The notes: a model not told the origin generated them from the letters alone. A DNA stretch of 64,000 nt from Candidatus Omnitrophota bacterium (GCA_043805415.1 JAZDHZ010000033.1:25600-89599), one strand, 5' to 3'. Shown: positions 1 through 62,009, numbered from the stretch's first letter. Program-made: numbers and translations.

Positions 1-177
1 GGAGTTTTTTATTTGTCCAAGACCAGTTGTTTGACCGGCTTATCAATGGCGGTCTAGAATCAATCATTTTAGCTCATTCTCGCATTACATCCTGTAATGC
101 TCCGAGGATGAATCTCTGATTTTGCCGGTCCTGTCAAAATCAGGCTTCAAACCCGCTAAAATGATTATTCTAGCCCT

Positions 178-1581
178 TTACAGTTTGAGTTTTCCTATAC
201 GCAGCAGGTATTGTTCAACTTTTTTTGATGAATTTAAGTTATTATTGATAAGATTCCAGCAGTCAGCGTCTTCCATGCATAGATATACCGGAGTTTTCTG
301 GTCATATCCGCGGATCCACTGAAGCATTTTCTCATAAATCTGTTTGCGGATAAATTTAGGATAGCGGAGTTTTTTATCCTCGCCTAAGAATAGTTCCCCA
401 TAAAAAATATTACTTTCAGGAAATCTCAGCTCAGCAGAGTTTTTAAGTTTCCTTGTGCCGCGCAGGCTGCCGATGCTTATCCAGCTAAAAGGAGGTTTGA
501 CTTTAGCATATAATAAATCAATAACTGGTTTATAGAGTTTTTCCCAATCAGCGGAATATATTACCGGATCAAAGTGAAAGCCAAGGGAAAAGCCTTTTTC
601 CTGAACCGCCAAAGCAGCGGCTAATCTTTGCTCAAGATTTGCGGTTAGCAGCTCTTCAGACTTAACAATTGATTCTGGGTTAAGCGACCAGGAAATAACA
701 ATATTACGGCTAGGGTTTAATTTTAAGATATTAGCAATATTATTGCTTTTGGTTTTCAGCTCAAAATACACCGGCTTATCTTGAAAAAACTCAATCAGTT
801 TCTGCGCATAGCCGGTAATATGATCTAAAGCCAGAGAATCGCAGAATTCACCAGTGCCGATTCGGATGGGACGGTTAATTTTTTTATAAAAATCAGCGAA
901 TTTTTCAAAAAAATCATCGAGATTAGCCGGCAGAACAATGCCGGGAAAATTAGTGTATTGCTGGAGAAAACAATATGAGCAATCATATGGACAGCCGAAA
1001 CCAAGATTAAAGATCCAGTAATTACAGCCAATATGGTTTTTGGTGCAGGGGCAGGGTTTTATAAAATCCCATTTTTCCTGGACAATAAAAACAATGGGTT
1101 TCTTTAAATCTTTTAATTGAAATTGATTGCTTTTAACATACTCAAGGGAATTATTTATTTCAGTGATCGGCGTAGTTGGAAATTCTTCAGCAAAGCGTTT
1201 AGCCAGATAACTGTTTTTTGCTTGTTTTTCAATAAAAATCCTTTCCGGAATAAAAACCGAAGATTTAGGATGCGCCTCAGAAAGCGCGGGTTTTAACTCA
1301 GCAAGAAAAATTTTTGCCGGATCAAATTCCTGGTCTTGACTGGTGAGAGGAAAACGCATATTTATCAAGTCGCGTTTAATATTAACGAATTTATTTCTGC
1401 CGCTACTGTTTTCAATAATAAAATCAGTTTTAAGTTTATTAATGATTTGCTGATCATTAATCTTATCCCGGGTTTTAATTTCATGAAACAGCCGCAGAAT
1501 ATCCTTAGTCTGATTAAGATTTAATCTAAAACCAAAGGTTTTTTCAATAGTATGTTTAAACTTATCTTGATTAGTTCGCAT
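178..1581 (-). CDS. Radical SAM protein, spore-photoproduct-lyase (SPL) family-like, with ~130 aa N-terminal extension
   Basis: CPYDCSYC (CX3CX2C) radical SAM motif followed by GIVLPANLDDFF...IRIGTGEFCDSLALDHITGY, resembling the SPL/DNA repair photolyase-like radical SAM family. Recognition is by motif only. Confidence 0.5.
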   Translation of the reverse strand: MRTNQDKFKHTIEKTFGFRLNLNQTKDILRLFHEIKTRDKINDQQIINKLKTDFIIENSSGRNKFVNIKRDLINMRFPLTSQDQEFDPAKIFLAELKPALSEAHPKSSVFIPERIFIEKQAKNSYLAKRFAEEFPTTPITEINNSLEYVKSNQFQLKDLKKPIVFIVQEKWDFIKPCPCTKNHIGCNYWIFNLGFGCPYDCSYCFLQQYTNFPGIVLPANLDDFFEKFADFYKKINRPIRIGTGEFCDSLALDHITGYAQKLIEFFQDKPVYFELKTKSNNIANILKLNPSRNIVISWSLNPESIVKSEELLTANLEQRLAAALAVQEKGFSLGFHFDPVIYSADWEKLYKPVIDLLYAKVKPPFSWISIGSLRGTRKLKNSAELRFPESNIFYGELFLGEDKKLRYPKFIRKQIYEKMLQWIRGYDQKTPVYLCMEDADCWNLINNNLNSSKKVEQYLLRIGKLKL

Positions 1582-3381: not shown

Positions 3382-4167
3382 ATGCTGGCAAAACGTATTA
3401 TTCCCTGTCTGGATGTTAAAGACGGCAGAGTGGTTAAGGGAATTAATTTTCTTAATTTAAAAGATGCCGGAGATCCGGTTGAACAGGCGGCAATGTATAG
3501 CCGTGAGGGAGCGGATGAGGTTGTGTTTTTAGATATTACCGCAAGTTCTGACCATCGTAAAACTATGCTCGATGTGGTTAAAAGAACCGCGGAACAGGTA
3601 TTTATTCCGTTTACAGTTGGCGGCGGTATCCGCAAACTATCAGACATTGAGCTGATTTTACGCAAAGGCGCGGACAAGGTTTCTTTAAACACCGCGGCAG
3701 TTAAAAATCCTCAGCTAATCAAACGGGCCGCGAGAAAATTCGGCAATCAGTGTATCGTAGTCGCTGTGGATGCCAAAAGAAGGCCATTAGCTATGAGCCA
3801 TGAGCTATCAGCTAGCAAGTGGGAAGTCTATATTTACGGCGGTAGAGAACCTACGGGTATTGATGTGATTGAGTGGGTTAAAAAAGTCGAGTCCTTGGGC
3901 GCTGGTGAAATCCTGTTAACCAGTATGGATAAAGACGGCACGCAATCCGGCTATGATCTTGAGTTGACCAGGGCAGTGTGCGAGGCAGTGAATATTCCGG
4001 TTATTGCCTCTGGCGGCGCGGGAACTTTGGAACATTTATATGATGGCTTGTCTAAAGGCAGAGCAGACGCGGTTTTAGCAGCTTCTATATTTCACTATGG
4101 AAAGTACAAGATTCAACAGACCAAAGCGTATTTAGCGCGTAAAGGCTTGCATATGCGCTGTAAATAA
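3382..4167 (+). CDS. hisF: Imidazole glycerol phosphate synthase cyclase subunit HisF-like (WbuZ/HisF2-type glycosyl amidation-associated)
   Basis: [20 protein letters not shown]...[11 protein letters not shown]...VGGGIR, plus a C-terminal GAD/SIFH motif. RBS GGAGAG lies 6 nt upstream of ATG 3382. The GTG 3340 extension would run through the heptamer repeat. Confidence 0.85.
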
Positions 4168-5131: not shown

Positions 5132-5160
5132 TTGACATATTTATCCGACGGTGGTAAAAT
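5132..5160 (+). promoter_or_regulatory. Candidate sigma70 promoter TTGACA-17-TAAAAT
   Basis: Consensus -35 TTGACA (5132-5137), a 17 nt spacer and TAAAAT (5155-5160), about 40 nt upstream of the flippase gene. Confidence 0.5.
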
Positions 5161-28369: not shown

Positions 28370-29836
28370 ATGATTTTTGGAAAAGAAAGAATCATTTATC
28401 CTTACGCGCGTAACCTATTGTTTTTGTTGGCGTTGCTAGCTTCGTTATATATAATAGGGGTTATTGTAGTGAATGATTATCAGATTATTGTGCCAGTAAC
28501 TTGGCTGATTTTTATGGGTTTATTTTCTATTTACAAATATACAAATAAAAATAGAAGGTACTATACTCCGATAATTTTGACTATTTTTTATTTTTTTGGG
28601 TATTTGCTTTCCTTAGCAAATACCCTTATGAACAAAAGCAATCTGCGCGCTATTGGATTTAAAGCAATAGGTTCTTTTGGTTTTTCATTTTGGGAATATC
28701 TTTCGCTCACTTTTATTATTAGTACGGGTATGCTTGGTATTTTGTGTTCCGTGGTATTTATGGAAAAATTTAAAAACTCATGCCGATCTTTGTTTAGGTA
28801 TTTTAATCCTAATAAAAAGCAAATTATTAGGATTAATTATGTAATAATTAGTTTATTGATATGGTTTTTAATTTCAACAGCAATTTTTTTATATATGAAC
28901 AAAATTGGAATAGGAAGAACAGGGTTAAAACCGGAAACCCTTTTACCTTTTAAATTAGTGGGCATATTATTCTATGTAAAATTGATATTGATTCCTTGTT
29001 TAGGCTGTTTTTTGTTTGGGGTAATATTGGAAACAAACAATAAAATACTTATAAATCTGTCAATAATATTACTTATTCTTTTGGGTATAATAGGGTCTAT
29101 TTCGGGAATAAGCAGGGGTAGTTTAATCTTTAGTGTCTTACCCTCATTTATCTATATGTTATTTAAAAGTCATAAAAATGATTTTAAACGAAAAATACTG
29201 AAATCATATTCAATAATAGCAATACTTTTACTTATGATATTGATTCCGCTGGTGCTAGGCATGAGAAATATAGGGTATGCTGGTGGAAAAATAGATTTTA
29301 GCACGGCCATTAATATTTTAAAGTCTTTTAAGGTAGCTGATTTGCCTGGCGCAGCAGGATCGCTTATTTCGTTGATATTAGATAGAGTCATGGGAATAAA
29401 TGAATTGTATGCTGTTTTTAGCTCAGGAATTAAAGACTTGTATGCGCCATGGGCTCTTTTTATCACTGATGGCGCTTACTTGGAAAAAATCATAAAAGCT
29501 GTTTTTGGATTTGTCCCCTCTAATGAAGGGAATTTAGCTTTTGGGGTTGGTTTTGGTTTATGGGGAGTTTTGCAGTTAAGTGGAAGCTATAGTGTAATTT
29601 TTCTAGGTACCTTCGTGGCATGTAGTTTATCAATGGCTATAGAAGAGATATTTATTCGCAATGGGATGTATTATGTAGCTTGTTTTTTCGCGATCAATTT
29701 TGGCATGCTAGTATGGGAGGGATTGTATGTTTCAAGGTTAAGCCGTACTTTATTAATGATATTTATTTGTTTAATTATAACAGTAAGTTTGAAGAAGTTA
29801 TTTTATAGACGTATAACATGTGAAACGAGTTTGTAG
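28370..29836 (+). CDS. Polytopic membrane protein, possible Wzy-type repeat-unit polymerase
   Basis: 488 aa with about 12 TM. It has no Wzy_C motif, and the call rests on context only. Confidence 0.3.
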   Translation: MIFGKERIIYPYARNLLFLLALLASLYIIGVIVVNDYQIIVPVTWLIFMGLFSIYKYTNKNRRYYTPIILTIFYFFGYLLSLANTLMNKSNLRAIGFKAIGSFGFSFWEYLSLTFIISTGMLGILCSVVFMEKFKNSCRSLFRYFNPNKKQIIRINYVIISLLIWFLISTAIFLYMNKIGIGRTGLKPETLLPFKLVGILFYVKLILIPCLGCFLFGVILETNNKILINLSIILLILLGIIGSISGISRGSLIFSVLPSFIYMLFKSHKNDFKRKILKSYSIIAILLLMILIPLVLGMRNIGYAGGKIDFSTAINILKSFKVADLPGAAGSLISLILDRVMGINELYAVFSSGIKDLYAPWALFITDGAYLEKIIKAVFGFVPSNEGNLAFGVGFGLWGVLQLSGSYSVIFLGTFVACSLSMAIEEIFIRNGMYYVACFFAINFGMLVWEGLYVSRLSRTLLMIFICLIITVSLKKLFYRRITCETSL

Positions 29837-30826: not shown

Positions 30827-31753
30827 ATGGGTTTATTAGAATATACAAAATGTCCGTTTTGCGAATCAGGCAAATATAAACAGTTATTTTCAGGAAAAGA
30901 TTTTCTTTTTTCTAAAGAAGAATTTTCAGTTGTAAAATGTCAAGATTGCGGATTGCGATATACTAATCCGCGGGTTAAACAAGATCAGATAAAAAGTTAT
31001 TATTATACTGGATACTCTTCATATGAAAGTCCTGATTTAGGACTTAATAAAAAAAATAAAAACGTATTATATCGTTTTTTTGGAAACATTCATTTTGAAG
31101 TATTGGAATTCATTAAATCAGTCAATGCCAGAACTGTATTAGAAATCGGGCCGGGGAACGGGAGTTTGCTTTATTTTTTAAAAGATCAAGGTTTTGATGT
31201 TTGCGGGGTTGAATTGGATAGTAGTTCTGCCCAAAAGATCATGGAGCATGGTGTCAAGTGTTATTCAGGAGATTTAAATTCTGTTATAAGTGAGATGAGT
31301 GGGAAAAAGTTTGACATTGTAATCCTATGTCAGGCATTTGAACATTTATATAACCCTAAAATGACACTAACTAATATACATAAAATTCTGAATGATAATG
31401 GGGCTCTTTATCTGAGTTTGCCTAACAGCGGTTCAATGGAGGCAAGACTATTTGGAAAGTTTTGGCGGGGGTTTGATTTGCCTCGGCACATTGTACATTA
31501 TGATAAAAAAACGATTAAATCAATGCTAAATAAATCAGGATTTAGTGTTATTGCCCAGTACAATCAAAATTTCCCATCGTCTTTTGTGGAGAGTCTTGGT
31601 TTTTGCTTATTCAGGAAAAGAAAGATATCTACTAAATTGTATTATTTTTTATACTATTTATGGAAATTGATTAGTCCGATTCATTTAAGGCTAATTGGTT
31701 CAGGGGTTATGACAGTAATATCAGTTAATCAAAAGGGTTGTGAAAGAAAATGA
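30827..31753 (+). CDS. Class I SAM-dependent methyltransferase with N-terminal zinc-ribbon (paralogue of 21448 and 60952)
   Basis: CPFCES...CQDCGLRY zinc ribbon, VLEIGPGNG motif, and C-terminal LPN...W...DLPRHIVHYD. Confidence 0.75.
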   Translation: MGLLEYTKCPFCESGKYKQLFSGKDFLFSKEEFSVVKCQDCGLRYTNPRVKQDQIKSYYYTGYSSYESPDLGLNKKNKNVLYRFFGNIHFEVLEFIKSVNARTVLEIGPGNGSLLYFLKDQGFDVCGVELDSSSAQKIMEHGVKCYSGDLNSVISEMSGKKFDIVILCQAFEHLYNPKMTLTNIHKILNDNGALYLSLPNSGSMEARLFGKFWRGFDLPRHIVHYDKKTIKSMLNKSGFSVIAQYNQNFPSSFVESLGFCLFRKRKISTKLYYFLYYLWKLISPIHLRLIGSGVMTVISVNQKGCERK

Positions 31754-33114
31754 AGATCTTGTTTGTGAATGCAATAGACATTTCTAAAGGGATAGAGACG
31801 GCTTATCCTCCGTTGGGACTAGCATATTTATCCGCTATTTTGAAAAATAATTTTAAGGATATTCAGATTAAAATTATTGACCGTGATGTTGAGCCAGTAA
31901 TTAAATCTTTTTGTCCTGATGCAGTAGGGGTTTCATCGGTTTCCCAAAATTATGGGAGAGCTATTGAAGTGGGGAGATTGTGTAAATCATTGCAAATCCC
32001 CGTGTTTATCGGCGGGGTGCATATCACGTTACTTCCGGAATCTTTGTCAGCGGAATTTGATTTCGGGGTGTATGGAGAGGCTGAAGAGACAATTATTGAT
32101 ATTATTAAGTATTTTAAAAAAAGTATCCCATTAGATTGCATAGGATTGGCTGATATTAAAGGGCTTATTCTACATGCGCAGGATGGAGTAAAATTAACTG
32201 CCCCAAGACCTCTTATTGAGAATCTTAATTCGATCCCTTTTCCAGCTAGAGATTTATTGAGTATTCCCATAGGACAGAGTACATATATGTTTACTTCCAG
32301 AGGATGTCCTTATAAATGTGCTTTTTGTGCTTCTACGAGATTCTGGAATAATGTTAGATGGTTCTCGGCTGAATATGTTGTGAATGAAATAGAAGAAATA
32401 ATAAGGAAATATAAGCCGTTTGCCATATCTTTTTATGATGACCTTTTTATTGCCAATACCAAGAGACTTGAGAAAATCATTGACCTACTGTGTGCTAAAG
32501 GTATAAATAAAAAAGTTAAATTTAGTTTTGCTTGTCGGGCTAATCTTGTTAATGAGAAATTGATTAAAATTTTAAAACCTTTGGATATTCAGATGATTTG
32601 TATGGGATTGGAATCCGGTTGTCAAAAGACATTGAGCTATTTGAAGGGAAGTGCAATTACGATTGAGCAAAATAAAAAAGCCATAAATATTTTCGCAGAT
32701 GCTAAGATCAATATTCAGGCCACGTTCATTATTGGGTCTCCTGAAGAAACTGAGGACGAAATATTGCAGACATTGCAGTTTATTAAGGACAGTAAACTTA
32801 CCAATTTTGAGGTGTACCTGCTGAGCCCTTTTCCCGGGACTCCGGTTTGGGAAACTGCTAAATCAATGGGATTGGTTTCCAATCAAATGGATTGGGCAAA
32901 ATTAGCAGTAGATTCTCAAAATTGCTTTGACAACAGGATAATACTGTCTAAGATAAGTAAGACCAGGCTTTCTGAGTTATACGGACTTTTTTCTCATGAA
33001 AAGAAAAGAAGGAAAATACTTTATATACTTAAAATGGGAATTTGTAATCCATTATGGGTGCTAACAAAAGCACGCGCTGTTATTTTAAATGTTTTACAAG
33101 GTAAAGATAGTTAA
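31750..33114 (+). CDS. B12-binding radical SAM enzyme (class B radical SAM methyltransferase candidate)
   Basis: N-terminal cobalamin-binding-like Rossmann region and SRGCPYKCAFCAS (CX3CX2C). Confidence 0.75.
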   Translation: MKILFVNAIDISKGIETAYPPLGLAYLSAILKNNFKDIQIKIIDRDVEPVIKSFCPDAVGVSSVSQNYGRAIEVGRLCKSLQIPVFIGGVHITLLPESLSAEFDFGVYGEAEETIIDIIKYFKKSIPLDCIGLADIKGLILHAQDGVKLTAPRPLIENLNSIPFPARDLLSIPIGQSTYMFTSRGCPYKCAFCASTRFWNNVRWFSAEYVVNEIEEIIRKYKPFAISFYDDLFIANTKRLEKIIDLLCAKGINKKVKFSFACRANLVNEKLIKILKPLDIQMICMGLESGCQKTLSYLKGSAITIEQNKKAINIFADAKINIQATFIIGSPEETEDEILQTLQFIKDSKLTNFEVYLLSPFPGTPVWETAKSMGLVSNQMDWAKLAVDSQNCFDNRIILSKISKTRLSELYGLFSHEKKRRKILYILKMGICNPLWVLTKARAVILNVLQGKDS

Positions 33115-33131
33115 TAATTATGAATTACAAA

Positions 33132-33160
33132 TTGAAATGCAATGTTCAGTATAGTATAAT
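33132..33160 (+). promoter_or_regulatory. Candidate sigma70 promoter TTGAAA-17-TATAAT
   Basis: TTGAAA at 33132-33137, a 17 nt spacer and TATAAT at 33155-33160, in the 142 bp gap before the 33257 gene. Confidence 0.5.
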
Positions 33161-44397: not shown

Positions 44398-44497
44398 ACC
44401 GTATTTTTCAGTTTTAAACGATAATGACTTTAATAACTGAGGATTTGTTGTCTTCAATCTGTGTGTATTTTATGGTTATTTTGTTTGAGGATTCGTG

Positions 44498-44506
44498 TGC
44501 TATAAT
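44498..44506 (+). promoter_or_regulatory. Extended -10 promoter element TGcTATAAT
   Basis: TGCTATAAT at 44498-44506 in the 210 bp gap, about 100 nt upstream of the strongly SD-led small ORF. Confidence 0.4.
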
Positions 44507-44607
44507 ATATGCTATATTCCTGTAGTTTGGGCTTATGAGTCATATTTTAAATTAAAATCATTGATTTGTTAATATGGGCCAAAATGAAAATTTAAAAAGG
44601 GGGCAGG

Positions 44608-44826
44608 ATGTTTAATTTAAAAAGGAATTTTTATTTCCGATTATGTATGGTTATTTTAATCTGTATGTTTTTCACAAAAAACGCTTATGCTTATTTAGAT
44701 CCGGGAACTGGAAGTTATATTATACAAGTATTAATTGGCATTGTGATGGGCGGGATTATTACCATTAAGTTCTATTGGAAAAGGATTAAAGATTTTTTAA
44801 AGAATCTCTTTAACCCGCAAAAGTGA
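44608..44826 (+). CDS. Small single-pass membrane protein (72 aa), translationally coupled to downstream gene
   Basis: Strong SD AAAGGGGG 5 nt upstream of the ATG, one hydrophobic helix, and the stop overlaps the next start (ATGA). Confidence 0.5.
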   Translation: MFNLKRNFYFRLCMVILICMFFTKNAYAYLDPGTGSYIIQVLIGIVMGGIITIKFYWKRIKDFLKNLFNPQK

Positions 44827-46208
44827 TGAAACTTATTAAACCTATTCAAAGCTCTTTTAGAGATCCGAGCGGTTTCCTTTTTTTTCGGAATGGCTTGCTG
44901 TGTCGTCAGATAAATAAAATATATAAGGAAGAGTATGATCATTTGATGATCTCAGGCCTTTATAATAGGCTTGTAAAAGAGAAATTACTTATACCGCATG
45001 TTGAAACAGAGGGGATAGCCGGACAAATTGAAGCCTATAAAATTGTTCAACCAGAATTCATACCTTTCATTTCCTATCCTTACGAATGGTGTTTCAGCCA
45101 GTTAAAGGACGCAGCTTTAACAACATTAAAGATACAAAAAATAGCTATTGAATCAGGTATGTCTTTGAAGGACGCAAGTGCGTATAATATACAATTTAAC
45201 GAGGGCAAACCTGTATTAATAGATACTCTGTCTTTTGAAAAATATAATGAAGGCAAGCCTTGGATTGCGTATAGACAGTTTTGCCAGCATTTTCTTGCGC
45301 CTTTATCTTTGATGAGCCTTACCGATGTTCGAATGAGCCAACTTTTTAGGGTGTATATAGATGGTATCCCTTTAGATTTGGCGAGTCTATTATTACCTAA
45401 AAATAGCTGGTTAAGGTTTTCTTTATTTTTTCACATTCACATTCATGCTAGAGGACAGAAACATTTTGCTGACAAGCAAGTTGATACACAAAGGCATAAA
45501 TTAAGTAAATTGTCCTTATTGGGAATAATTGAAAATCTTGAAAAAACAATACAAAAATTCAACTGGAGACCTAAGGGAACTGAATGGGCTGATTATTACG
45601 CTAATACTAATTATTCTGCTGAGGCGCTACAGCATAAAAAGGATATTGTAGCCGAATTCTTGTCCAAAGCTGATCCGAAAACTGTATGGGATATTGGCGC
45701 CAATGAAGGGGTATTTAGCGGTATTGCCAGTGATAAAGGGATAAAGGTGGTATCTTTTGATAACGATCCTGCGGCAGTGGAAAAAAATTACCTTAAGTGT
45801 AAATTACAAGAAGAAACAAATACTCTGCCTTTGTTGATCGACATAACTAATCCGAGCCCGGGCATCGGATGGGAAAATGAGGAAAGAGAGTCTTTTATAA
45901 AACGCGGTCCCGTGGATATGGTTTTGGCACTGGCCTTGGTACATCATTTAGCGATCTCTAATAATGTCCCATTAAATAAAATCGCTAACTTTTTTAGCAA
46001 TATTTGTACTTGGTTGGTTATTGAATTTATTCCCAAATGTGATTCGCAGGTCCAAAGGCTTTTGGCAAACAGGGCGGATATCTTTTCGAATTATACTCAG
46101 CAGGATTTTGAAGTTTCTTTCCAAGATGATTTTTTAATACTCCAAAAGGTACGGAATATAGACTCTCAGCGCATACTTTATCTTATGAAAAAAAAGGGGC
46201 ATGATTAA
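44823..46208 (+). CDS. Bifunctional kinase-like (N-terminal) / class I SAM methyltransferase (C-terminal) protein
   Basis: N-terminal Gly-rich FRDPSGFLFF, LKDASAYN (D-x4-N catalytic-loop spacing) and LIDTLSFE (DFG-equivalent) fit a protein-kinase/APH/Kdo-kinase-like fold. C-terminal VWDIGANEGVFS is SAM motif I. Confidence 0.55.
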   Translation: MMKLIKPIQSSFRDPSGFLFFRNGLLCRQINKIYKEEYDHLMISGLYNRLVKEKLLIPHVETEGIAGQIEAYKIVQPEFIPFISYPYEWCFSQLKDAALTTLKIQKIAIESGMSLKDASAYNIQFNEGKPVLIDTLSFEKYNEGKPWIAYRQFCQHFLAPLSLMSLTDVRMSQLFRVYIDGIPLDLASLLLPKNSWLRFSLFFHIHIHARGQKHFADKQVDTQRHKLSKLSLLGIIENLEKTIQKFNWRPKGTEWADYYANTNYSAEALQHKKDIVAEFLSKADPKTVWDIGANEGVFSGIASDKGIKVVSFDNDPAAVEKNYLKCKLQEETNTLPLLIDITNPSPGIGWENEERESFIKRGPVDMVLALALVHHLAISNNVPLNKIANFFSNICTWLVIEFIPKCDSQVQRLLANRADIFSNYTQQDFEVSFQDDFLILQKVRNIDSQRILYLMKKKGHD

Positions 46209-47607
46209 TAAAATAACGATACATCCATATTGTTTCGCATTATATTATATATTACTTGCAGCTACCACGCAATTCAGGCCGGCTTTATTGAATTTATTTT
46301 TTTCGACTTTAATTCTATTAGCGCTAGTGTTGGTATTCCATCTGATATTGTGGTTCAGGCTTAGGGATATTTTGAAGGCCGGGATTATCGTTACTATTAT
46401 TTTATTCTCGTTTTTATTTTATTCACAGATATATCAGATGGTTTCTGATATATCTACTAAATTAGCCAGGCACAGATTTCTCGTTTTTGGAGTATTAACT
46501 TTTACGATTTCATCAATTTTTTTCATTACAAAGACAAAAAAAAAGCTGTGTAATCTTAATTCCTATCTTAATCTTGTTTCCGTGGCATATGTTATTTATG
46601 GAATAATACTGGTATCCCAAACATACGCAAAGCCTTATGATAGTTCGCTGGAAAATCAAGTTTATGATATTAAATTCGAAAAAAGTGCGAGTAGCGTGGA
46701 GGAAATAAAGAAATTACCGGATATTTATTATATTATTTTAGATAGCTATACCAGTTCAGCTGCTCTAAAGAAATACTTTAGTTATGATAATAATGAGTTT
46801 GTGCATAATTTACAAAAAAGAGGATTCTATGTAGCAGAAACTAGCCGTTCGTTTGCAAATTCCACTGCTATTTCCATAGCTTCAACCTTTAATATGACTA
46901 ATGATCATAGATTATTAGCTGAACCTACCGAAATTTGCATGAAATTAATCGAAAATAGTTTGGTAGTAAAATATTTGAGCTCCCGATCATATGAAATAAC
47001 AAATTATTCTTTATTTTGCTTAGCTGATAAACAGCCATATTATACATATTTTTCATCTTTCAATGGATTCAATCCCTGGAAAATGTTAGAAAATAACCTT
47101 TTCAATGTAGCCTTCCAAAATTTTCAAAACGGAGATATGTATAAGATTAATAAGAGCATAATTTTCGAATTAAAGCGAATGCCCGAGGTCAGGCAAAATC
47201 AGCCGAGATTTATATATGCTCACCTGTTTATTCCTCATGAGCCTATGATATTAGATCGGGAGACAAACATTATTCCGTGGTGGAAACGCAAAAGTATTTT
47301 AGATAAGAAGGCCTATGTTGAACAGGTGCAAGGAACAAATAAGTTAGTTTTGGAAGTAATCGATAATATATTGGGTAAATCAAAAGTTCAGCCAGTTATT
47401 ATTATACAAGGAGATCACGGGTATAGACATGGGGAACATTCCAAGGTGACCGGTTTTTCCATATTAAATGCTTATTATCTTCCTGATAAGGATTATAAAT
47501 ATTTATATCCGAACGTTTCTCCTTTTAATTCTTTTAGGATAATATTCAATCTATATCTAAAGACTAAATATGAATTATTAAAGGATGATTATTGGGGCAA
47601 TGAATAA
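46201..47607 (+). CDS. Membrane-anchored sulfatase/alkaline-phosphatase-superfamily transferase (LtaS/EptA/OpgB-like phospho-substituent transferase candidate)
   Basis: Five N-terminal TM helices, then IILDSYTS (sulfatase N-terminal motif) and QGDHGY near the C-terminus. Confidence 0.6.
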   Translation: MINKITIHPYCFALYYILLAATTQFRPALLNLFFSTLILLALVLVFHLILWFRLRDILKAGIIVTIILFSFLFYSQIYQMVSDISTKLARHRFLVFGVLTFTISSIFFITKTKKKLCNLNSYLNLVSVAYVIYGIILVSQTYAKPYDSSLENQVYDIKFEKSASSVEEIKKLPDIYYIILDSYTSSAALKKYFSYDNNEFVHNLQKRGFYVAETSRSFANSTAISIASTFNMTNDHRLLAEPTEICMKLIENSLVVKYLSSRSYEITNYSLFCLADKQPYYTYFSSFNGFNPWKMLENNLFNVAFQNFQNGDMYKINKSIIFELKRMPEVRQNQPRFIYAHLFIPHEPMILDRETNIIPWWKRKSILDKKAYVEQVQGTNKLVLEVIDNILGKSKVQPVIIIQGDHGYRHGEHSKVTGFSILNAYYLPDKDYKYLYPNVSPFNSFRIIFNLYLKTKYELLKDDYWGNE

Positions 47608-47691: not shown

Positions 47692-48264
47692 GTGCAAATA
47701 AATATGAAACGAATTTTTGATTTTATTTTGGCTTTTATTTTGATGAGTTTGTTTAGCGTGCCGATGTTACTTATTGCAGCATATATTAAGCTAATATCTA
47801 AGGGGCCGGCTATATTCTGGACTGATCGCGTGGGTATAAATAATATCATTTTTAAAATGGCAAAATTTAGGACTATGAAATTAAATACGCCCCAGGTAGC
47901 GACTCATTTAATGAAAAACCCGGAAAAATATTTAATTCCAGGAGGAAAGTTTCTGCGTATATCAAGCCTTGATGAGCTGCCGCAATTATTTAACATTTTA
48001 AAGGGAAATATGAGTTTCGTCGGTCCTCGCCCCGCATTATTTAATCAGGATGACCTCGTGGAATTGCGTACTAAGAAAAATATCCATAAGCTTGTTCCCG
48101 GTATTACGGGTTGGGCGCAGGTAAACGGAAGAGACGATTTAGAGATTCCTGTAAAAGTTTCTTTTGATGAATATTACCTCAGGAACCGTTCTTTTGCCTT
48201 TGATCTTAACATTATTTTTTTAACTGCGATAAAAGTTTTAAAAAGAGATGGTGTTAAGCATTAA
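47692..48264 (+). CDS. Initiating sugar-phosphate transferase (bacterial sugar transferase, PglC/WbaP C-terminal domain type)
   Basis: One N-terminal TM, then PAIFWTDRVG...KFRTM...DELPQLFNILKGNMSFVGPRP, the monotopic phosphoglycosyl transferase core. Confidence 0.88.
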   Translation: MQINMKRIFDFILAFILMSLFSVPMLLIAAYIKLISKGPAIFWTDRVGINNIIFKMAKFRTMKLNTPQVATHLMKNPEKYLIPGGKFLRISSLDELPQLFNILKGNMSFVGPRPALFNQDDLVELRTKKNIHKLVPGITGWAQVNGRDDLEIPVKVSFDEYYLRNRSFAFDLNIIFLTAIKVLKRDGVKH

Positions 48265-48287: not shown

Positions 48288-48326
48288 ATATCAATGAAAT
48301 GGTTGTAAAAACCATTTCATTGATAT
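48288..48326. promoter_or_regulatory. Perfect 17-bp inverted repeat (ATATCAATGAAATGGTT-gtaaa-AACCATTTCATTGATAT) overlapping a TTGTAA-17-TATAAT promoter
   Basis: Arms at 48288-48304 and 48310-48326. The -35 TTGTAA (48303-48308) spans the arm/loop junction and the -10 TATAAT is at 48326-48331. No U-tract follows, so it is not a canonical terminator. Confidence 0.6.
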
Positions 48327-48396
48327 ATAATATAACCCTACGTAAAATGAATAAAATTTCTTATAACATATTGATACTTTTGGTGTTATAGATTTT

Positions 48397-50271
48397 ATGT
48401 CAAGAAAAGACGCAAAGAGGATATACAAGATGAAAGTAAAATTTAGAAAATTGATTATAGTTGCTGTTGATTTGTTGTCAATTAATGTTTCCATATTTCT
48501 TGCGTTTATGATCCGTTTTGACTGGAATCCATCTCCTTTGATGAGAGAAGCGTGCGTTTATTTCATGGTTTTGGCAAGTGTGATCAGAGTTAGTATGTTT
48601 TTTGTTTTTGGCGCGTATCAGTGGTCTTTTCGGCATGCCAGCATGAGCGAAGCCATGAATATTTTTAAAGCTGTTACTGTCGGAAGCCTAGTGATTATTA
48701 CTTCGGCATTTTTTTTGCGGCAAGATGGGCTGCTGGGCATAGGGCGTACGGTACTGTTGATTGATTATCTAATTTGTTTTTTTCTGATCAGCGCTTCGCG
48801 GTTTTTGCCCAGGTTTTTGATTAAGTTTCGAATCTTGCACCGGAGCAATCTCAAACGATTGCTTATTGTAGGGGCGGGAACTGCTGGAGAAATGGTTGTT
48901 CGTGAGTTGCTTAATGTGGAGGAGGGGATGTATCTTCCTATTGGTTTTGTCGATGATGACCATTTGAAACTGCATTCACGAATACATGGCATAAAAATAT
49001 TGGGAGTGACTGATGATATAAAAAAACTAGTCACTGATCATGGGATAGAGGAAATTGTCATTGCTATGCCTTCGGCCAATGGCCGGACTATAAGAAATAT
49101 TGTTTCTAAATGTGAAAATTTAGGCGTAAAGATTAAAATCATTCCTGGATTGCATAAAATAATGTCAGGAGAAGTATCTATAAAGCAAATTACTGACGTC
49201 CAGCCGGAAGATCTTTTGGGCCGGCAGATGGTGGAAATGGACGAGAGTGATGTCCAGGCGTTTCTCAAAGAACAGGTTGTTCTTGTTTCCGGTGCGGGCG
49301 GAACTATCGGATCGGAATTATGCCGGCAAATAGTAAAATTTAATCCAAGACTCTTAATCCTCTTTGATTATAATGAAAATGATATTTATTTTTTGGAACT
49401 GGAGTTGAAAGAAAAATACCCATATTTGAATTTTAAAACAATAATTGGTGATATTAAGGATGTGGGATTGCTCAAACATACATTTTCCAGCTATAAACCC
49501 GATATTGTGTTCCATTCCGCCGCGCATAAACATGTGCCGCTTATGGAGGAAAATCCAGTAGCAGCAGTTAAAAATAATATTATAGGAACCCGTAATCTTA
49601 TGTATGCTTCCGAGCATTACGGGGTCAAAAATTTTGTAATGATATCTACAGATAAAGCAGTTAATCCTACAAGTATTATGGGTGCTTCAAAGCGAATAGC
49701 GGAAACAATGATTCAGGCAAAGGCACAGGTTTCCAGAACAAAATTTATGGCGGTTCGTTTCGGTAATGTTATTGGTTCCAGCGGAAGTGTTATTCCGATT
49801 TTTAAAAAACAGATTGAAAAGGGCGGCCCTATAACCGTTACTCATCCCGAGGTCAAAAGATATTTTATGTCAGCCAGCGAAGCAGCCCAACTGGTAATTC
49901 AGGCTGGGGCTATTGGCAATGGAGGTGAAATCTTTATTTTGGATATGGGCGAACAGATTAAAATTACTGATCTTGCCAAAAATCTGATAACATTATCCGG
50001 GCTGGAAGTTGATGTGGATATTGAAATTAAGTATATTGGATTACGGCCGGGAGAGAAGATGGAGGAGGAGACATTGCTTGATATTGAGCATGATAGGGCA
50101 ACAAAATACAATAAAATTTTCATTGCTCAGCCGAATAATTTTGATTTACGTAAGATGCGTAGGGATATAAGAGCGCTGGAAGTAATGGCTAAAGTTATGG
50201 ACAGCCAGCGCATAGTTAATAAAATTAAAAAGATGGTCCCCTTCCATAATTCTAATGCAGCGATAAAATGA
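48397..50271 (+). CDS. Membrane-anchored UDP-GlcNAc 4,6-dehydratase (WbpM/PglF/CapD-type polysaccharide biosynthesis protein)
   Basis: Four N-terminal TM helices, then two Rossmann-like domains (LIVGAGTAGE; VSGAGGTIGSEL) and the CapD-type catalytic core. ATG 48430, with RBS AGAGGA, is an alternative start. Confidence 0.88.
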   Translation: MSRKDAKRIYKMKVKFRKLIIVAVDLLSINVSIFLAFMIRFDWNPSPLMREACVYFMVLASVIRVSMFFVFGAYQWSFRHASMSEAMNIFKAVTVGSLVIITSAFFLRQDGLLGIGRTVLLIDYLICFFLISASRFLPRFLIKFRILHRSNLKRLLIVGAGTAGEMVVRELLNVEEGMYLPIGFVDDDHLKLHSRIHGIKILGVTDDIKKLVTDHGIEEIVIAMPSANGRTIRNIVSKCENLGVKIKIIPGLHKIMSGEVSIKQITDVQPEDLLGRQMVEMDESDVQAFLKEQVVLVSGAGGTIGSELCRQIVKFNPRLLILFDYNENDIYFLELELKEKYPYLNFKTIIGDIKDVGLLKHTFSSYKPDIVFHSAAHKHVPLMEENPVAAVKNNIIGTRNLMYASEHYGVKNFVMISTDKAVNPTSIMGASKRIAETMIQAKAQVSRTKFMAVRFGNVIGSSGSVIPIFKKQIEKGGPITVTHPEVKRYFMSASEAAQLVIQAGAIGNGGEIFILDMGEQIKITDLAKNLITLSGLEVDVDIEIKYIGLRPGEKMEEETLLDIEHDRATKYNKIFIAQPNNFDLRKMRRDIRALEVMAKVMDSQRIVNKIKKMVPFHNSNAAIK

Positions 50272-53429: not shown

Positions 53430-53433
53430 ATTT

Positions 53434-53605
53434 CTAATTTCTAATTACTAATTGACCTAAAATAAATAAAAAAATAACTAATAAATTACTAATGGATCTA
53501 AAATTATTAAAAAAGAGTTTACTGAATAAAGTACTGATTGACTTAAAATAGATAAAAATAAAATAAGAGTTGAGTAAATTACTAATTATTAGTAGACCTA
53601 AAATG
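53434..53605 (+). repeat. Repeat-rich leader: (CTAATTN)x3 heptamer array followed by four degenerate ~45-bp tandem units (core TTACTAATNGACCTAAAAT) ending at the 4HB start codon
   Basis: CTAATT at 53434, 53441 and 53448. Unit cores start near 53446, 53494, 53533 and 53582. The last unit contains the ATG of the four-helix-bundle gene. Confidence 0.8.
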
Positions 53606-53962
53606 AATGAAAATAAAGATAAAAAGTATGATTTAGCTGAGCGTACTGCCAAATTTGGTGAGGAAATAGTTCGTTTTGCAAAGAGAGTAAAGACGGATAA
53701 TATTACCGTAACGATAATAAGACAGTTAGTAGCTGCAGGAACATCTGTTGGAGCGAATTATTGTGAAGCGGATGATGCGGAGTCTAAGAATGATTTTAAG
53801 CATAAAATTGGGATTTGTAAAAAAGAAGCGAGAGAAACTAAATATTGGTTAAGAATTGTATTAGTGACAAGTCCTGAGCTTGAAAAAGAAGCAAAAATAC
53901 TCTCTAATGAAGCAAAAGAACTGAATCTGATATTTAACGCGATAGTTAATAAGCTGAAATAA
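53603..53962 (+). CDS. Four-helix-bundle protein (TIGR02436 / 23S rRNA intervening-sequence protein family)
   Basis: KYDLAERTAKFGEEIVRF...RQLVAAGTSVGANYCEA...KHKIGICKKEARETKYWLRI is the canonical pattern of this family, and the size matches (about 120 aa). Confidence 0.8.
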   Translation: MNENKDKKYDLAERTAKFGEEIVRFAKRVKTDNITVTIIRQLVAAGTSVGANYCEADDAESKNDFKHKIGICKKEARETKYWLRIVLVTSPELEKEAKILSNEAKELNLIFNAIVNKLK

Positions 53963-53986
53963 TTTTGACATTGGTAATTATTTAGA

Positions 53987-54013
53987 AATTAGATTAATTA
54001 GGTTAATTAGATC
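53987..54013 (+). repeat. (AATTAGNNN)x3 array, inverse complement of the CTAATT array upstream of the 4HB gene
   Basis: AATTAG at 53987, 53996 and 54005 with a 9-bp period. Together with 53434-53453 it forms inverted hexamer arrays that bracket the 4HB gene. Confidence 0.7.
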
Positions 54014-54037
54014 AATTGAGGAAAGTGTAATCAAAAT

Positions 54038-55531
54038 ATGAAGGTAATAATTTCTTATCCGCCATTAAATAAAGAAAAGGGAACGCCTTTACTTTCTCAG
54101 AATAGGCAGTTTCAATATTTTAAAGATCCGACTTATATTTATCCGGTTGTTCCAGCGCAAGCGGCATCACTGCTTAAACGGGAAGGATTTGATGTTATCT
54201 GGAATGATTGTATTGCCATGGACTGGGAGTATCAGCGGTTTATCGAGTTCATAAACAATGAAAAACCTGATATTATAGCAATGGAAACAAAGACACCTGT
54301 TGTTAAAGAACACTGGAAAATCATCAACGACATTAAAAGACTATCGACCATTGACTATCGACCATTGACTGTTTTATTCGGCGACCATGTTACCGCAATG
54401 CCTGAGGAATCAATGCAAAATTGCCAGGTTGATTTTGTGCTAACAGGAGGTGACTATGATTTTCTGTTGTTAAATTTGTGTAATGCATTAAAAGCCACAA
54501 GCCACAAGCCGCAAGCCGCAAGCATAAAGGATAAATTAGAGCAGGGCATTTGGTATAGGAAAACAGGACAGATAAAAAACACAGGGAAGTTTGAACTGAA
54601 ACATGATCTTAATACTCTTCCGTTTATTGACCGCGATTTAACCCAGTGGAAATCATACGCTTATAAAAATGGTAATTACAGAAAAACTCCGGGAACTTAT
54701 ATTATGAGCGCACGGGATTGCTGGTGGGGGACGTGCACTTTCTGTTCCTGGCCCCAACTTTTTCCTGAATTTAGAAGCCGAAATCCGGAAAATGTGCTGG
54801 ATGAGATCGAGCTGTTGGTGGATAAATTTCAGGTTAAGGAAATAATGGATGATTCCGGGACATTTCCTGTGGGGAAATGGCTGAAAGAATTTTGTTTGGG
54901 AATGATTGACCGGGGTTTGCATAAAAAAGTTACGCTTGATTGCAATATGCGTTTTGGCGCTTTGAGCTTTGAAGAATATAAATTGATGCAAAAAGCCGGT
55001 TTTCGTTTCCTTCTCTTTGGTATTGAGTCAGCTAATCAAAAAACGCTTGATAAGATAAAGAAGGGTCTAAAAGTAGAAGACATTATCCCGAGCTGTAAAG
55101 ATGCCAGACGCGCAGGGCTTTATCCGCATATTACCATAATGTTCGGCTATCCCTGGGAATCCTATGAAGATGCCCAAAATACCCTTAAACTGGGGAAATT
55201 CTTATTAAAAAAAGATTATGCTTATACCATGCAGTCAACAGTGGTTGTGCCTTATCCGGGAACTCCTTTATTCGAAGAATGCAAGGCTAATGACCTTTTA
55301 TACAGCACGAATTGGGAAGATTATGACATGAAGTGTCCGTTAATGAAAACAGATTTTTCCAAGGAAAAGCTTTTACAGCTTGTCCAGAGCCTTTATTCTG
55401 TCAGCTATTCCCCGGAATTTGTGGCCAGGAAAATTCTTAGCATTAGAGAGTTTGATGATATAAAATATTTCGGCCGGGCGTTCATGAAAGTTGCTGGGCA
55501 TATATTTGATTTTAAAAAGAAAAAAGCGTGA
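54038..55531 (+). CDS. B12-binding radical SAM enzyme with atypical CX4CX2C cluster motif and in-frame heptamer-repeat insertion
   Basis: N-terminal B12-binding-like domain, then DCWWGTCTFCSW. The repeat-encoded KATSHKPQAASIKD segment lies between the two domains. Confidence 0.65.
   Translation: MKVIISYPPLNKEKGTPLLSQNRQFQYFKDPTYIYPVVPAQAASLLKREGFDVIWNDCIAMDWEYQRFIEFINNEKPDIIAMETKTPVVKEHWKIINDIKRLSTIDYRPLTVLFGDHVTAMPEESMQNCQVDFVLTGGDYDFLLLNLCNALKATSHKPQAASIKDKLEQGIWYRKTGQIKNTGKFELKHDLNTLPFIDRDLTQWKSYAYKNGNYRKTPGTYIMSARDCWWGTCTFCSWPQLFPEFRSRNPENVLDEIELLVDKFQVKEIMDDSGTFPVGKWLKEFCLGMIDRGLHKKVTLDCNMRFGALSFEEYKLMQKAGFRFLLFGIESANQKTLDKIKKGLKVEDIIPSCKDARRAGLYPHITIMFGYPWESYEDAQNTLKLGKFLLKKDYAYTMQSTVVVPYPGTPLFEECKANDLLYSTNWEDYDMKCPLMKTDFSKEKLLQLVQSLYSVSYSPEFVARKILSIREFDDIKYFGRAFMKVAGHIFDFKKKKA
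54331..54358 (+). repeat. 14-bp (2x7) perfect tandem duplication CTATCGACCATTGA x2 inside radical SAM gene
   Basis: Read directly from the sequence. It encodes STIDYRPLTV. Confidence 0.9.
54493..54520 (+). repeat. Heptanucleotide tandem repeat (AAGCCRC)x4 (= CCRCAAG register) inside radical SAM gene
   Basis: aagccac aagccac aagccgc aagccgc. It shares the CACAAG core with the hisH and hisF-leader repeats. Confidence 0.9.
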
Positions 55532-58563: not shown

Positions 58564-59413
58564 TATTAAGGTTTCAATTATAATCACTACAAAAAATGCT
58601 GAACAGTATATTGCCGACTGCTTGGGTTCGATAAAGTCTCAGAATTATAATCAATCTGAGATTGAAGTTATTGTTGTTGATAATAATTCAAATGACAAGA
58701 CAAAATCAATCGCGTATCAATTTACGGATAAAGTCTATAATATAGGCCCGGAACGTTCAGCTCAAAGGAATTTCGGAATAAATAATGCATCAGGGGAATA
58801 TGTGCTTTATCTTGATGTGGACATGATGCTTTCCAGAAATGTGCTCTTAGAGTGTGTGAAAAAAATAGAAACAGAAGATTTGAGCGGGTTGTATGTCCCG
58901 GAAGTAATTGTCGGCAAAGGGTTTTGGATAGAGGTGCGAAACTATGAACGCGGTTTTTATAACGCGACTGTGGTTGACTGTGTTCGGTTTATAAAAAAAG
59001 ATGCATTTGTAAAAATAAAAGGTTTTGATGAAAATTTAACCGGCCCGGAAGATTGGGATTTTGATAGAAGAATAAATCAGGTTGGAAAAACCGCGATAAT
59101 AAATTCTCCGATTTATCATAATGAGGGGAGATTTAATTTAAGAAACTATTTACTGAAAAAAAGCTATTATTCAAAAACATTTGAAAAATATATTCAAAAA
59201 TGGGGAAAAAATGATCCAATTATAAAAAAACAGCTTGGTTTTTTTTATCGGTTTATTGGTGTATTTATAGAAAAGGGAAAATGGAAAAAACTTATTAGCC
59301 ATCCTGTTTTTACTTCAGGGATGTATTTTTTAAGATTTTTAGTCGGGATCACATTCTTGGCAGCAGGAATCGGTCGAAATCCTTTAAAAAATAAAGGTAA
59401 TATCTATGAGTAA
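58556..59413 (+). CDS. Family 2 glycosyltransferase
   Basis: VSIIITTKNAEQYI...VIVVDNNSNDKT...LDVDM. Confidence 0.75.
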   Translation: MDNIKVSIIITTKNAEQYIADCLGSIKSQNYNQSEIEVIVVDNNSNDKTKSIAYQFTDKVYNIGPERSAQRNFGINNASGEYVLYLDVDMMLSRNVLLECVKKIETEDLSGLYVPEVIVGKGFWIEVRNYERGFYNATVVDCVRFIKKDAFVKIKGFDENLTGPEDWDFDRRINQVGKTAIINSPIYHNEGRFNLRNYLLKKSYYSKTFEKYIQKWGKNDPIIKKQLGFFYRFIGVFIEKGKWKKLISHPVFTSGMYFLRFLVGITFLAAGIGRNPLKNKGNIYE

Positions 59414-60926
59414 AAATAGTTCGATCAAGAAAGTTTTGTTTGTTTCTCCGCCTTCTAGAGCCTTTAACCACTATCGACCGCCTTTGGCATTAATGTATCT
59501 TTCCGGTTATTTAAAAAAACAGGGTATTCAAACGGAAATTATTGATTGTATTATTAAGGATCAGGTTAGAAGCAAGTCTTTTGATCGAAATAAGGATATT
59601 TATTTAGCTAAAGTAAGGGAAAACACAATAAAGCATATAATTGAAACGGATACTGATATAGTTTGTATAACTTGTTATACTCCTGAATTACAAGAAGTTG
59701 AAACCCTAGCTGCTGAGATTAAAAATAAAAAAAAAGGAATAAAGATTGTTGTCGGCGGAGTCCATCCTATGTTTTTCCCTGAACATTTCATTTGCGATAA
59801 TTCTAATTTTGATTTTGTGGTTATAGGTGAAGGCGAGGTAACTCTTTTTGAATTAGTCAAGGCAATTAGGAATAATGCTTATCAATATAACTTGGTTGAC
59901 GGTATAGCATACTGGGATAAACAATCAAATAAGCTGATAATAAATAAAAGACGAGTTTTGGCTGAAAATTTAGATGAGATATCATTTCCTGATTATGAAG
60001 ATTTAGATATGGATTTTTATACAACAGCATCGCCGTATGCGATAAGAGGAGTTTTTTCTAAAAGTTTTTATGTTTTATCATCTAGAGGTTGTCCATCTTC
60101 TTGTACTTTTTGTGTGTCGAAAAAATTGAGAGAATTTTACTCAGGTGAGCGTTTTGTCAGGCTGCGTTCTCCTGAATCCTTGTATAAGGAGATTAAGGAT
60201 TTAAGAGACGAATATAAAATTGATTCGTTTTATTTTATTGATGACCTCTTTACCTTAAAAAAAGAAAATGTTCGCCAGTTCTGCCAATTAATGATTGATG
60301 ATAAATCTCCTTTGATCTGGGGCTGCTCATCTAAGGTTAACACAGTTGATTACGAAATGCTTAAAATTATGGCTGATGCCGGTTGTGTGCAGATTGATTT
60401 TGGGGTTGAAAAAGGAACGGATAGTGAGCTTAAACAGCTTAAAAAGGGAATCACTCTTGCCCAGATAGAAAAGACTTTTAAAAATTGCCGAAAACTAGGT
60501 ATTCGTACTTTTGCTAATATGCTGGTTAATACTCCCGGGGAACAGGAGGCTGATTTGCGGTCATCTTTGGCTTTTGTTCAAAGAATTAAGCCAACCATTG
60601 TTTCTTTTAATGTTTTTGCCCCATATCCAGGGTGTGAAATTTTTAATGAGCGATGCGGGAATATAAAAAGAGAAGATTATCCGGCTTTAATGAATACAGT
60701 GTTATTGATAAAAGATAAGCCTGAGAAATATAGGTTTGCAGAGCATTCGGTGGATTTGCTTGATTGGGTTATCCGTGCAAATAGAAAATATAATAAGGTT
60801 TTACCTAACTTATCAATATATTTTAGCGTCAAATATATTAAAAATATTATAAGCTCGAAATCCAAAATGGAATATTTGAAAAGGTTCGTGAGTTTATTAA
60901 AAGAATTTATAAATCAAAAATTTTAG
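59406..60926 (+). CDS. B12-binding radical SAM enzyme (third copy)
   Basis: N-terminal B12-binding-like domain and SRGCPSSCTFCVS (CX3CX2C). Confidence 0.75.
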   Translation: MSKNSSIKKVLFVSPPSRAFNHYRPPLALMYLSGYLKKQGIQTEIIDCIIKDQVRSKSFDRNKDIYLAKVRENTIKHIIETDTDIVCITCYTPELQEVETLAAEIKNKKKGIKIVVGGVHPMFFPEHFICDNSNFDFVVIGEGEVTLFELVKAIRNNAYQYNLVDGIAYWDKQSNKLIINKRRVLAENLDEISFPDYEDLDMDFYTTASPYAIRGVFSKSFYVLSSRGCPSSCTFCVSKKLREFYSGERFVRLRSPESLYKEIKDLRDEYKIDSFYFIDDLFTLKKENVRQFCQLMIDDKSPLIWGCSSKVNTVDYEMLKIMADAGCVQIDFGVEKGTDSELKQLKKGITLAQIEKTFKNCRKLGIRTFANMLVNTPGEQEADLRSSLAFVQRIKPTIVSFNVFAPYPGCEIFNERCGNIKREDYPALMNTVLLIKDKPEKYRFAEHSVDLLDWVIRANRKYNKVLPNLSIYFSVKYIKNIISSKSKMEYLKRFVSLLKEFINQKF

Positions 60927-61878: not shown

Positions 61879-62009
61879 ATAGAGCCGCTAAATCAAGATC
61901 ATATTATGAAGCGCAGCAGTTTAAAACCAGGAAAATCCGTTTAGATTTAAAAGCTGTTTATGTTATAATAAAAACTTCTTATTTATGTTTTTTTAAGAAA
62001 GGCAATTTA

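Follow-up and report, generated by a model that had tools for sequence, protein, structure and literature searches.

A perfect palindrome overlapping a putative conserved promoter at a possible operon boundary in a glycan-biosynthesis island of a Candidatus Omnitrophota bacterium

In a stretch of 64,000 nucleotides from a Candidatus Omnitrophota bacterium (hereafter the window), we found that the gap between a sugar-transferase gene and the gene of a PglF/WbpM-like dehydratase contains a 17-bp perfect palindrome interlocked with the promoter sequence TTGTAA-17-TATAAT (Table 1). The palindrome is real and non-random. The promoter sequence, which is retained in two sister lineages, is probably a conserved internal sigma-70-type promoter upstream of the dehydratase block. 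Taken as a whole, the site may tentatively be read as an operon-boundary module that combines this conserved promoter with a hairpin closing the upstream transcript, if the repeat acts at all. The site would then be an ordinary operon-boundary signal of kinds that are already known, with a history that can be traced through lineages.

Table 1. Features at the boundary between the sugar-transferase and dehydratase genes (positions counted from the first nucleotide of the window).
Feature	Position	Strand	Remarks
Small phosphoglycosyl (sugar) transferase gene	47704-48264	+	Pfam Bac_transf, E = 1.8e-56; last gene of the upstream unit
Left arm, ATATCAATGAAATGGTT	48288-48304	.	Spans about -50 to -34 of the promoter, with the upstream element and bases 1-2 of the -35 hexamer
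Conserved island (52 nt)	48289-48340	+	Only intergenic part aligning significantly with orthologous regions
-35 hexamer, TTGTAA	48303-48308	+	TTGAAA in both sister lineages
Loop, GTAAA	48305-48309	.	Includes bases 3-6 of the -35 hexamer; GAAAA in the sister lineages
Right arm, AACCATTTCATTGATAT	48310-48326	.	Occupies the promoter spacer; final base is the first T of TATAAT
-10 hexamer, TATAAT	48326-48331	+	Invariant in three of three lineages, exactly 17 nt from the -35 hexamer
Conserved discriminator and predicted start region, ATAACCCTA	48332-48340	+	TTAAACCTA and TTAACCCTA in the sister lineages
Ribosome-binding site, AAGAGGA	48416-48422	+	7 nt before ATG 48430, read from the sequence
PglF/WbpM-like membrane-anchored UDP-GlcNAc 4,6-dehydratase gene	48430-50271	+	Pfam Polysacc_synt_2, E = 4.6e-116, and CoA_binding_3

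The window is a single long plus-strand glycan-biosynthesis island of about 36% G+C in which we found no tRNA genes, and the gap between the transferase and dehydratase genes measures 165 nt. The transferase, a protein of 186 aa, is 100% identical to a database protein annotated as a sugar transferase of Candidatus Omnitrophota, and its NCBIfam matches are confined to the C-terminal catalytic domain of WcaJ/WbaP-type phosphoglycosyl transferases. The N-terminal membrane half of these enzymes is matched by residues 13-258 of the dehydratase encoded next to it. The dehydratase is built from an N-terminal membrane/CoA_binding_3 region and a C-terminal Polysacc_synt_2 SDR domain, and its best PDB match is PglF/WlaL of C. 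jejuni (5BJU, E = 1.2e-93, residues 256-592). These Pfam and PDB matches bear out the initial annotation, which had described a WbpM/PglF-like dehydratase downstream of the palindrome, and the gene product is assigned to the PglF/WbpM-type UDP-GlcNAc 4,6-dehydratases, with a putative activity. Its start codon is most likely ATG 48430, and not position 48397 as given by the ORF finder, because a ribosome-binding site precedes this ATG and because the resulting protein of 613 aa is 100% identical to the database protein P0001. The identical database proteins assign the window to a Candidatus Omnitrophota MAG. A conserved downstream block (dehydratase, Wzy_C, GT2, GT2) begins with the dehydratase gene, and the downstream gene order is the same in the relatives L001, L002, L003 and L210.

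On the upstream side, the window carries two genes without a Pfam or NCBIfam match (44823-46208 and 46201-47607, G+C about 0.32), and there is a 425-nt gap on the way from the Epimerase_2 gene to the transferase gene (44398-47607 region). The counterpart of window 44398-47607 in L210 (3042-3998) is one epimerase gene of 318 aa. Because the two lineages differ here, the upstream side of the palindrome belongs to the strain-variable part of the locus. Elsewhere in the island, a 608-nt gap (53430-54037) contains a 130-aa gene of the 23S_rRNA_IVP family (four-helix bundle; 53570-53962), which is flanked on both sides by runs of short TAATTA/CTAATT-like repeats. The presence of three B12-binding radical SAM genes (31750-33114, 54038-55531 and 59406-60926) and at least seven methyltransferase genes across the island suggests heavily methylated sugars.

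The arms of the palindrome pair at all 17 positions, as established both by reading the sequence and with a repeat finder, and the next outer bases, A48287 and A48327, are unpaired. It begins 24 nt past the last base of the transferase stop codon TAA (48262-48264), and the tail that follows the stem, ATAATATAACCC, contains no T-run. The -35 hexamer has its TT in the left arm and its GTAA in the loop; the 17-nt spacer (48309-48325) consists of the last loop base and the right arm, and TATAAT begins on the last base of this arm. The perfect arms with their GTAAA loop, the distance from the stop codon, the missing U-tract and the overlap with the promoter had all been pointed out in the initial annotation, and we recovered each of them at exactly the positions described.

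This is the longest perfect inverted repeat of the 64-kb window, and in 20 Markov simulations the longest perfect inverted repeats had arms of 9-12 nt. Analytically, a repeat as perfect as this one is expected about 1e-4 times per 64 kb and 0.005 times per 3 Mb. The RNA of the palindrome folds with -22.2 kcal/mol (z = -6.7), an energy reached by none of 200 shuffled sequences, and each DNA strand folds with -16.2 kcal/mol (z = -8.4). Two further perfect inverted repeats lie within coding regions, one at 28803-28836 (13-nt arms, 8-nt loop) and one at 46427-46455 (12-nt arms, 5-nt loop), the latter in one of the two genes without annotation that precede the transferase gene.

Searches for related copies were negative. 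The half-site had no second copy in the 64-kb window with up to two mismatches, and its matches with three mismatches were at chance level (9 against 6.3 expected). In genome collections, the 17-mer gave at least 119 single matches in unrelated phyla, and none was palindromic among the matches listed. Rfam 15 gave no match at the gathering score, and a permissive Rfam search returned for the hairpin only weak matches to eukaryotic miRNA precursors, far below the threshold. Viral contigs contained neither the conserved island nor the palindrome core, and a distant DNA search of plasmids found similarity in coding regions only, in unrelated taxa.

Taken alone, the promoter match is not above chance in AT-rich DNA such as this. 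The TTGTAA-17-TATAAT site scored 10/12, and four scans for promoter-like sites returned 24, 80, 77 and 97 of them, compared with 21, 70, 80 and 82 in shuffled sequences; what supports the promoter is its conservation. Three lineages could be compared, namely the window, L003 and L210, both sisters having an intact transferase-dehydratase gap. The L003 type comprises five metagenome contigs and one NCBI MAG with identical intergenic DNA (P0077 and P0003-P0006 are of this same lineage, likewise with identical intergenic DNA), and the second sister lineage is represented by L210/L209. The dehydratases of the sisters are 84-85% identical to that of the window, the three lineages being 82-85% identical to one another, and the dehydratase lineages as a group are star-like, at 81-88% amino-acid identity.

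The intergenic gap of 165 nt in the window corresponds to 434 nt in L003, which has about 270 nt extra between the transferase stop and the island (615-880), and to 256 nt in L210. The island gave a local alignment score of 51, compared with a shuffle maximum of 34. Across the three lineages, the -35 hexamer is identical at 5-6 of 6 positions, the -10 hexamer at all 6, and the spacing is 17 in every case, while identity within the spacer amounts to 8-11 of 17 positions. In the 11 nt after the -10 hexamer, 7-9 positions are identical, and the first nine of these bases read approximately (A/T)TAA(C/A)CCTA. In L003, the island promoter has the top score among the promoter-like sites of the region (11/12). 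Because this footprint is conserved while the remaining intergenic DNA cannot be aligned, we accepted the promoter that the initial annotation had placed upstream of the dehydratase, with its -35, 17-nt spacing, -10 and start region kept in two independent sister lineages. Transcription would start near 48338-48340.

Relatives at 63-70% dehydratase identity have no gap before the dehydratase. Besides one locus that was already known, a metagenome scan with the dehydratase revealed two loci of 63-64% identity in which an aminotransferase gene lies directly before it, and in the relative at 70% identity the dehydratase overlaps its upstream gene. From the relatives at 64-70% identity that are devoid of the gap, it follows that the island appears together with the gap. 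Three independent metagenome or MAG contigs of close relatives (L001 1-16, L002 1-5 and L086 1-12, corresponding to window 48301-48345) start inside the island or no more than about 10 nt past it, which points to heterogeneity among strains or to an assembly fault at the boundary. The L001/L002 type has the -35 hexamer and the start of the spacer, and TATAAT is apparently absent at the homologous distance; the contigs begin there.

Other signals near the site were considered and rejected. Another promoter-like sequence (TTGATA-17-TAAAAT, 48320-48348) is kept in neither L003 nor L210; a promoter on the minus strand that would use the symmetric loop (TTTACA) lacks a -10; and stop codons, together with a 1-nt deletion in L210, rule out a leader peptide or a small ORF spanning the island. 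An antisense site with a 12/12 match to the sigma-70 consensus, TTGACA-16-TATAAT, is found on the minus strand at 48454-48481, within the first 50 nt of the dehydratase gene and facing the palindrome; it scores 9/12 in L003 and is absent in L210, and its chance expectation is about 0.1 per window. The other best plus-strand promoter-like sites all lie in gene gaps and may be further internal promoters of the island: TTGACA-17-TAAAAT with a TG (5132-5160), TTGAAA-17-TATAAT (33132-33160) and TTTAGA-18-TATAAT with a TG (61940-61969).

The two arms of the palindrome differ in their conservation. The left arm, upstream of the -35 hexamer, is better conserved (14 of 17 positions identical to L003, 12 to L210, and 13 between L003 and L210) than the right arm in the spacer, for which the corresponding values are 11, 11 and 8 of 17. 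The pairing is degraded in both sisters: L003 has 10 Watson-Crick pairs and one G-T pair out of 17, and L210 has 11 and two, with a bulge. Neither fold of the palindrome region is better than those of shuffled sequences (z = +0.6 and -0.6, respectively). At the central node of the three sequences, a majority rule gives 14 Watson-Crick pairs and one G-T pair, or 15 if 48318 was A as in L210, and we infer that the ancestor carried a near-palindrome with at least 14 of 17 pairs.

Since this node, the island has undergone 7, 8 and 7 changes per lineage. The four arm changes of the window all form or preserve a pair (48288 G>A, 48316 C>T, and 48296 T>G together with the change of 48318 to C); the first 16 nt of L001 favour an ancestral C at 48316. 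Each of the arm changes in L003 disrupts a pair, and in L210 one double change from C-G to T-A preserves a pair and the other arm changes break pairs. Pairing in register was found in 82% of cells, compared with 26-48% when the partners were slid, and two pairs changed on both sides among the three sequences, although the covariation over these three sequences was not significant (117 of 500 shuffles were as good). The palindrome thus appears to have been perfected in the window lineage by pair-forming changes only and to have decayed elsewhere. Because the arm changes of the window all form or preserve pairs, a constraint or a correction would act on nucleic-acid pairing, and we lean towards base pairing, and not protein contacts, as what has shaped the palindrome. 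Since the hairpin was lost in two of the three lineages, any function it might have would be non-essential; judged from the two sisters that keep the promoter without it, the hairpin is dispensable.

This history also matches the signature of quasipalindrome correction, in which an imperfect ancestral repeat acquires derived changes that only raise its complementarity. Template switching at quasipalindromes yields perfect or more perfect repeats without any selection (PMC7202029), and the pattern seen here is inseparable from selection on pairing. A strong rival to the transcript-end hairpin role, and close behind it, is a palindrome without a selected role, although in itself this is rather unlikely. 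The promoter would be the sole functional element, an inverted duplication would have replaced its spacer, and template switching would recently have perfected the repeat. Such an origin fits the position of the right arm, which lies exactly in the 17-nt spacer, the promoter part that tolerates any sequence, and also the decay of this arm at about 5 of 17 positions per sister lineage, in contrast to the retained hexamers and left arm. It likewise fits the passage from an imperfect ancestor to a perfect repeat, since one substitution and one conversion tract explain the double change at 48296/48318, and it agrees with the absence of other copies in the 64 kb, of an Rfam family and of a regulator gene among the scanned ORFs of the window. 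What speaks against it is that both arms changed (48288 in the left one, 48316 and 48318 in the right one), which calls either for a fortunate point mutation or for two or more events of opposite direction, and that template switching failed to restore the repeat of L003 and that of L210. In addition, this is the sole structured gap among 16, at a place suited to a boundary signal. The template-switch hotspots described at quasipalindromes (Ripley 1982; Lovett laboratory; PMC7202029) resemble the present case in that an imperfect repeat is perfected, including a paired double change; however, they are mutations that arose in the laboratory, in reporter or coding genes, whereas here the pattern is deduced from three natural lineages.

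The conservation of the arms also bears on an operator, the main meaning that the initial annotation had given to the palindrome: a dimeric DNA-binding regulator bound to two 17-bp half-sites would occlude the -35 hexamer, the spacer and the edge of the -10 hexamer, and would repress the dehydratase block, controlling its committed step. The geometry proposed for this operator is sound insofar as a dyad site does overlap the promoter, but the two half-sites are not both conserved, with 10-11 of 17 pairs left in L003 and L210. The perfect dyad is centred at about -32 and spans the whole RNA polymerase contact region, and its outer blocks TAnnAA/TTnnTA are symmetric in three of three lineages. 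Long operators that overlap promoters exist, such as the 40-bp bioO. However, fully symmetric half-sites of 17 bp exceed what protein contacts need, the right half-site decays in both sisters while the left arm and the promoter persist, so that the left arm is not kept as one half of a dimer site, and the pair-preserving double substitutions (T-A to G-C in the window, C-G to T-A in L210) are unlike base-specific recognition. The search for half-site copies proposed along with the operator found none in the 64 kb at up to two mismatches, and a Pfam scan of the window ORFs of at least 150 aa and of three small ones revealed no DNA-binding domain, seven ORFs being without a match. In comparison with the palindromic operators of bioO/BirA, LexA boxes or the TetR type, the dyad here similarly covers the -35 to -10 region with a geometry compatible with occlusion. 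Natural operators are usually imperfect and are conserved in both halves, whereas this site has perfect 17-bp symmetry in one lineage and a decaying half in the others, and neither a regulator nor a regulon was found in the 64 kb. We regard the operator as quite unlikely, and in view of the decay of the right half and of the pair-directed changes the palindrome has a more modest meaning than control of the dehydratase step by a dimeric regulator. An operator should not be deduced from perfect dyad symmetry across a promoter alone.

The functional reading that we prefer for the repeat is an RNA stem-loop, in keeping with the RNA stability or processing hairpin that the initial annotation had named as the alternative, although it is the least certain part of the explanation; a selected role of the palindrome as a transcript-end hairpin is possible, if on the doubtful side. 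The sigma-70-type promoter would start the PglF-like dehydratase/Wzy_C/glycosyltransferase block with a leader of about 92 nt. The palindrome would be an old inverted copy of the upstream element of this promoter (-50 to -34) placed in the 17-nt spacer, which is the promoter part with a free sequence and a fixed length, so that the copy could settle there without damage to the promoter. When transcription of the sugar-transferase gene runs on into the gap, the RNA would fold into a stem-loop of -22 kcal/mol that ends just before the new start. This stem-loop could weaken read-through or shield the strain-variable upstream unit at its 3' end, resembling a terminator without a U-tract. Transcripts of the internal promoter would begin past the hairpin and would therefore not contain it.

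The 16 same-strand gene gaps of the window provide a background for this stem-loop: the fold is significant only at the palindrome (z = -6.7), the others having z values from -1.1 to +1.4. A single place in the window is clearly the end of a transcription unit, namely the region downstream of the minus-strand gene at 178, and it also folds stably (-37.4 kcal/mol, z = -4.5). This region (60-180, minus strand), past an SPL-like gene (178-1581), has no U-tract and no Rfam match, and it contains the nested perfect repeats AATCATTTTAGC/GCTAAAATGATT, CTGATTTTG/CAAAATCAG and GCATTAC/GTAATGC. Its structure may be the form that transcript ends take in this organism, or an undescribed small RNA. In L003, an unrelated imperfect hairpin (616-684; -25.4 kcal/mol, z = -3.3) starts 2 nt after the same stop codon, and between the stop codon and the promoter of L210 we found no significant hairpin.

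A canonical intrinsic terminator, as defined in model bacteria, was rejected, in line with the initial annotation, which had noted that the structure does not fit a simple one. The hairpin shares with canonical Rho-independent terminators its position soon after a stop codon and a strongly negative folding energy; it differs from them in its A/U-rich 17-bp stem with four G-C pairs and in having no U-tract, and the terminator scan made no call. A parallel may be found in the colanic acid operon of E. coli, for which a stem-loop transcriptional attenuator has been described within the cluster, immediately after wzc (PMC2516531). The two cases are analogous in that a stable stem-loop lies between same-strand glycan blocks just after a stop codon, where it could uncouple their expression. 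In the colanic acid cluster, however, downstream expression depends on read-through and the stem-loop has no promoter fused to it, whereas here a promoter overlaps the hairpin. The ops/JUMPStart motif GGCGGTAG occurs once in the window, at 3838, which is the chance level, and there is no such element at the palindrome.

A bolder version of the boundary module would be a designed insulator made of a terminator and a promoter, in a phylum that ends its transcripts at hairpins without U-tracts, and supercoiling or the traffic of RNA polymerase from upstream may gate such a promoter. We consider this very unlikely. If it were true, one 44-bp element would stop the strain-variable upstream unit and restart the conserved downstream unit. 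Supercoiling would have a more direct role if the perfect A/T-rich palindrome extruded as a cruciform under negative superhelicity, which would take the -35 hexamer and the spacer out of the duplex, so that the promoter sensed the superhelical density. The DNA strand fold (-16.2 kcal/mol, z = -8.4), the perfect A/T-rich arms, the 5-nt loop and a centre within the -35 hexamer are what would be expected of such a switch, but the feature is dispensable in the sister lineages and its 17-bp arms are close to the shortest that would extrude at physiological superhelicity, which makes this reading highly improbable. Horwitz and Loeb reportedly built in 1988 an engineered E. coli promoter regulated by cruciform extrusion. 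That construct likewise has a palindrome centred on the -35 region, but it is artificial and its behaviour was shown experimentally, whereas such a switch in the window is hypothetical.

We also considered that the palindrome might be a dispersed repeat, the end of a mobile element or a site-specific recombination site placed at the junction of the strain-variable and conserved parts of the glycan locus. The three contigs whose first bases fall inside the island or no more than about 10 nt past it (L001, L002 and L086) would be compatible with this, as would the upstream DNA, which differs between lineages by large insertions and deletions and also in gene content. On the other hand, a mobile or repeated element is at odds with the lack of a second copy in the 64 kb, with the negative search of viral contigs, and with the 17-mer matches in at least 119 genome stretches, which are single, come from unrelated taxa and are in no case palindromic among the matches listed. 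No recombinase or transposase gene was found near the palindrome, and the conserved outer motifs of attC-type sites are absent. The core spacers of tyrosine-recombinase sites measure 6-8 nt and those of serine-recombinase sites 2 nt; attC, dif/lox-type and serine-recombinase sites were rejected in view of the odd 5-nt spacer and the missing motifs. On this evidence, a mobile or recombination element is extremely improbable.

The known signals closest to the site include the internal sigma-70-type promoters that open the conserved part of polysaccharide clusters, which it resembles in having TTGTAA/TTGAAA-17-TATAAT before a conserved block and in being kept across lineages. It differs from them in that the upstream element and the spacer are exactly complementary, its start site is predicted and its host is an uncultivated member of the Omnitrophota. 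Our understanding of polysaccharide loci is unchanged by this site. It provides a natural example of a promoter spacer that hosts an inverted copy of neighbouring DNA, and an example of a near-palindrome that was apparently perfected in one lineage and decayed in others. There is also a hint that gene ends in Omnitrophota carry stable hairpins without U-tracts. We know of no mapped promoter or terminator in this uncultivated phylum, and the site, as a phylogenetically footprinted E. coli-like promoter (TTGAAA/TTGTAA-17-TATAAT), may be used to annotate the transcription units of Omnitrophota.
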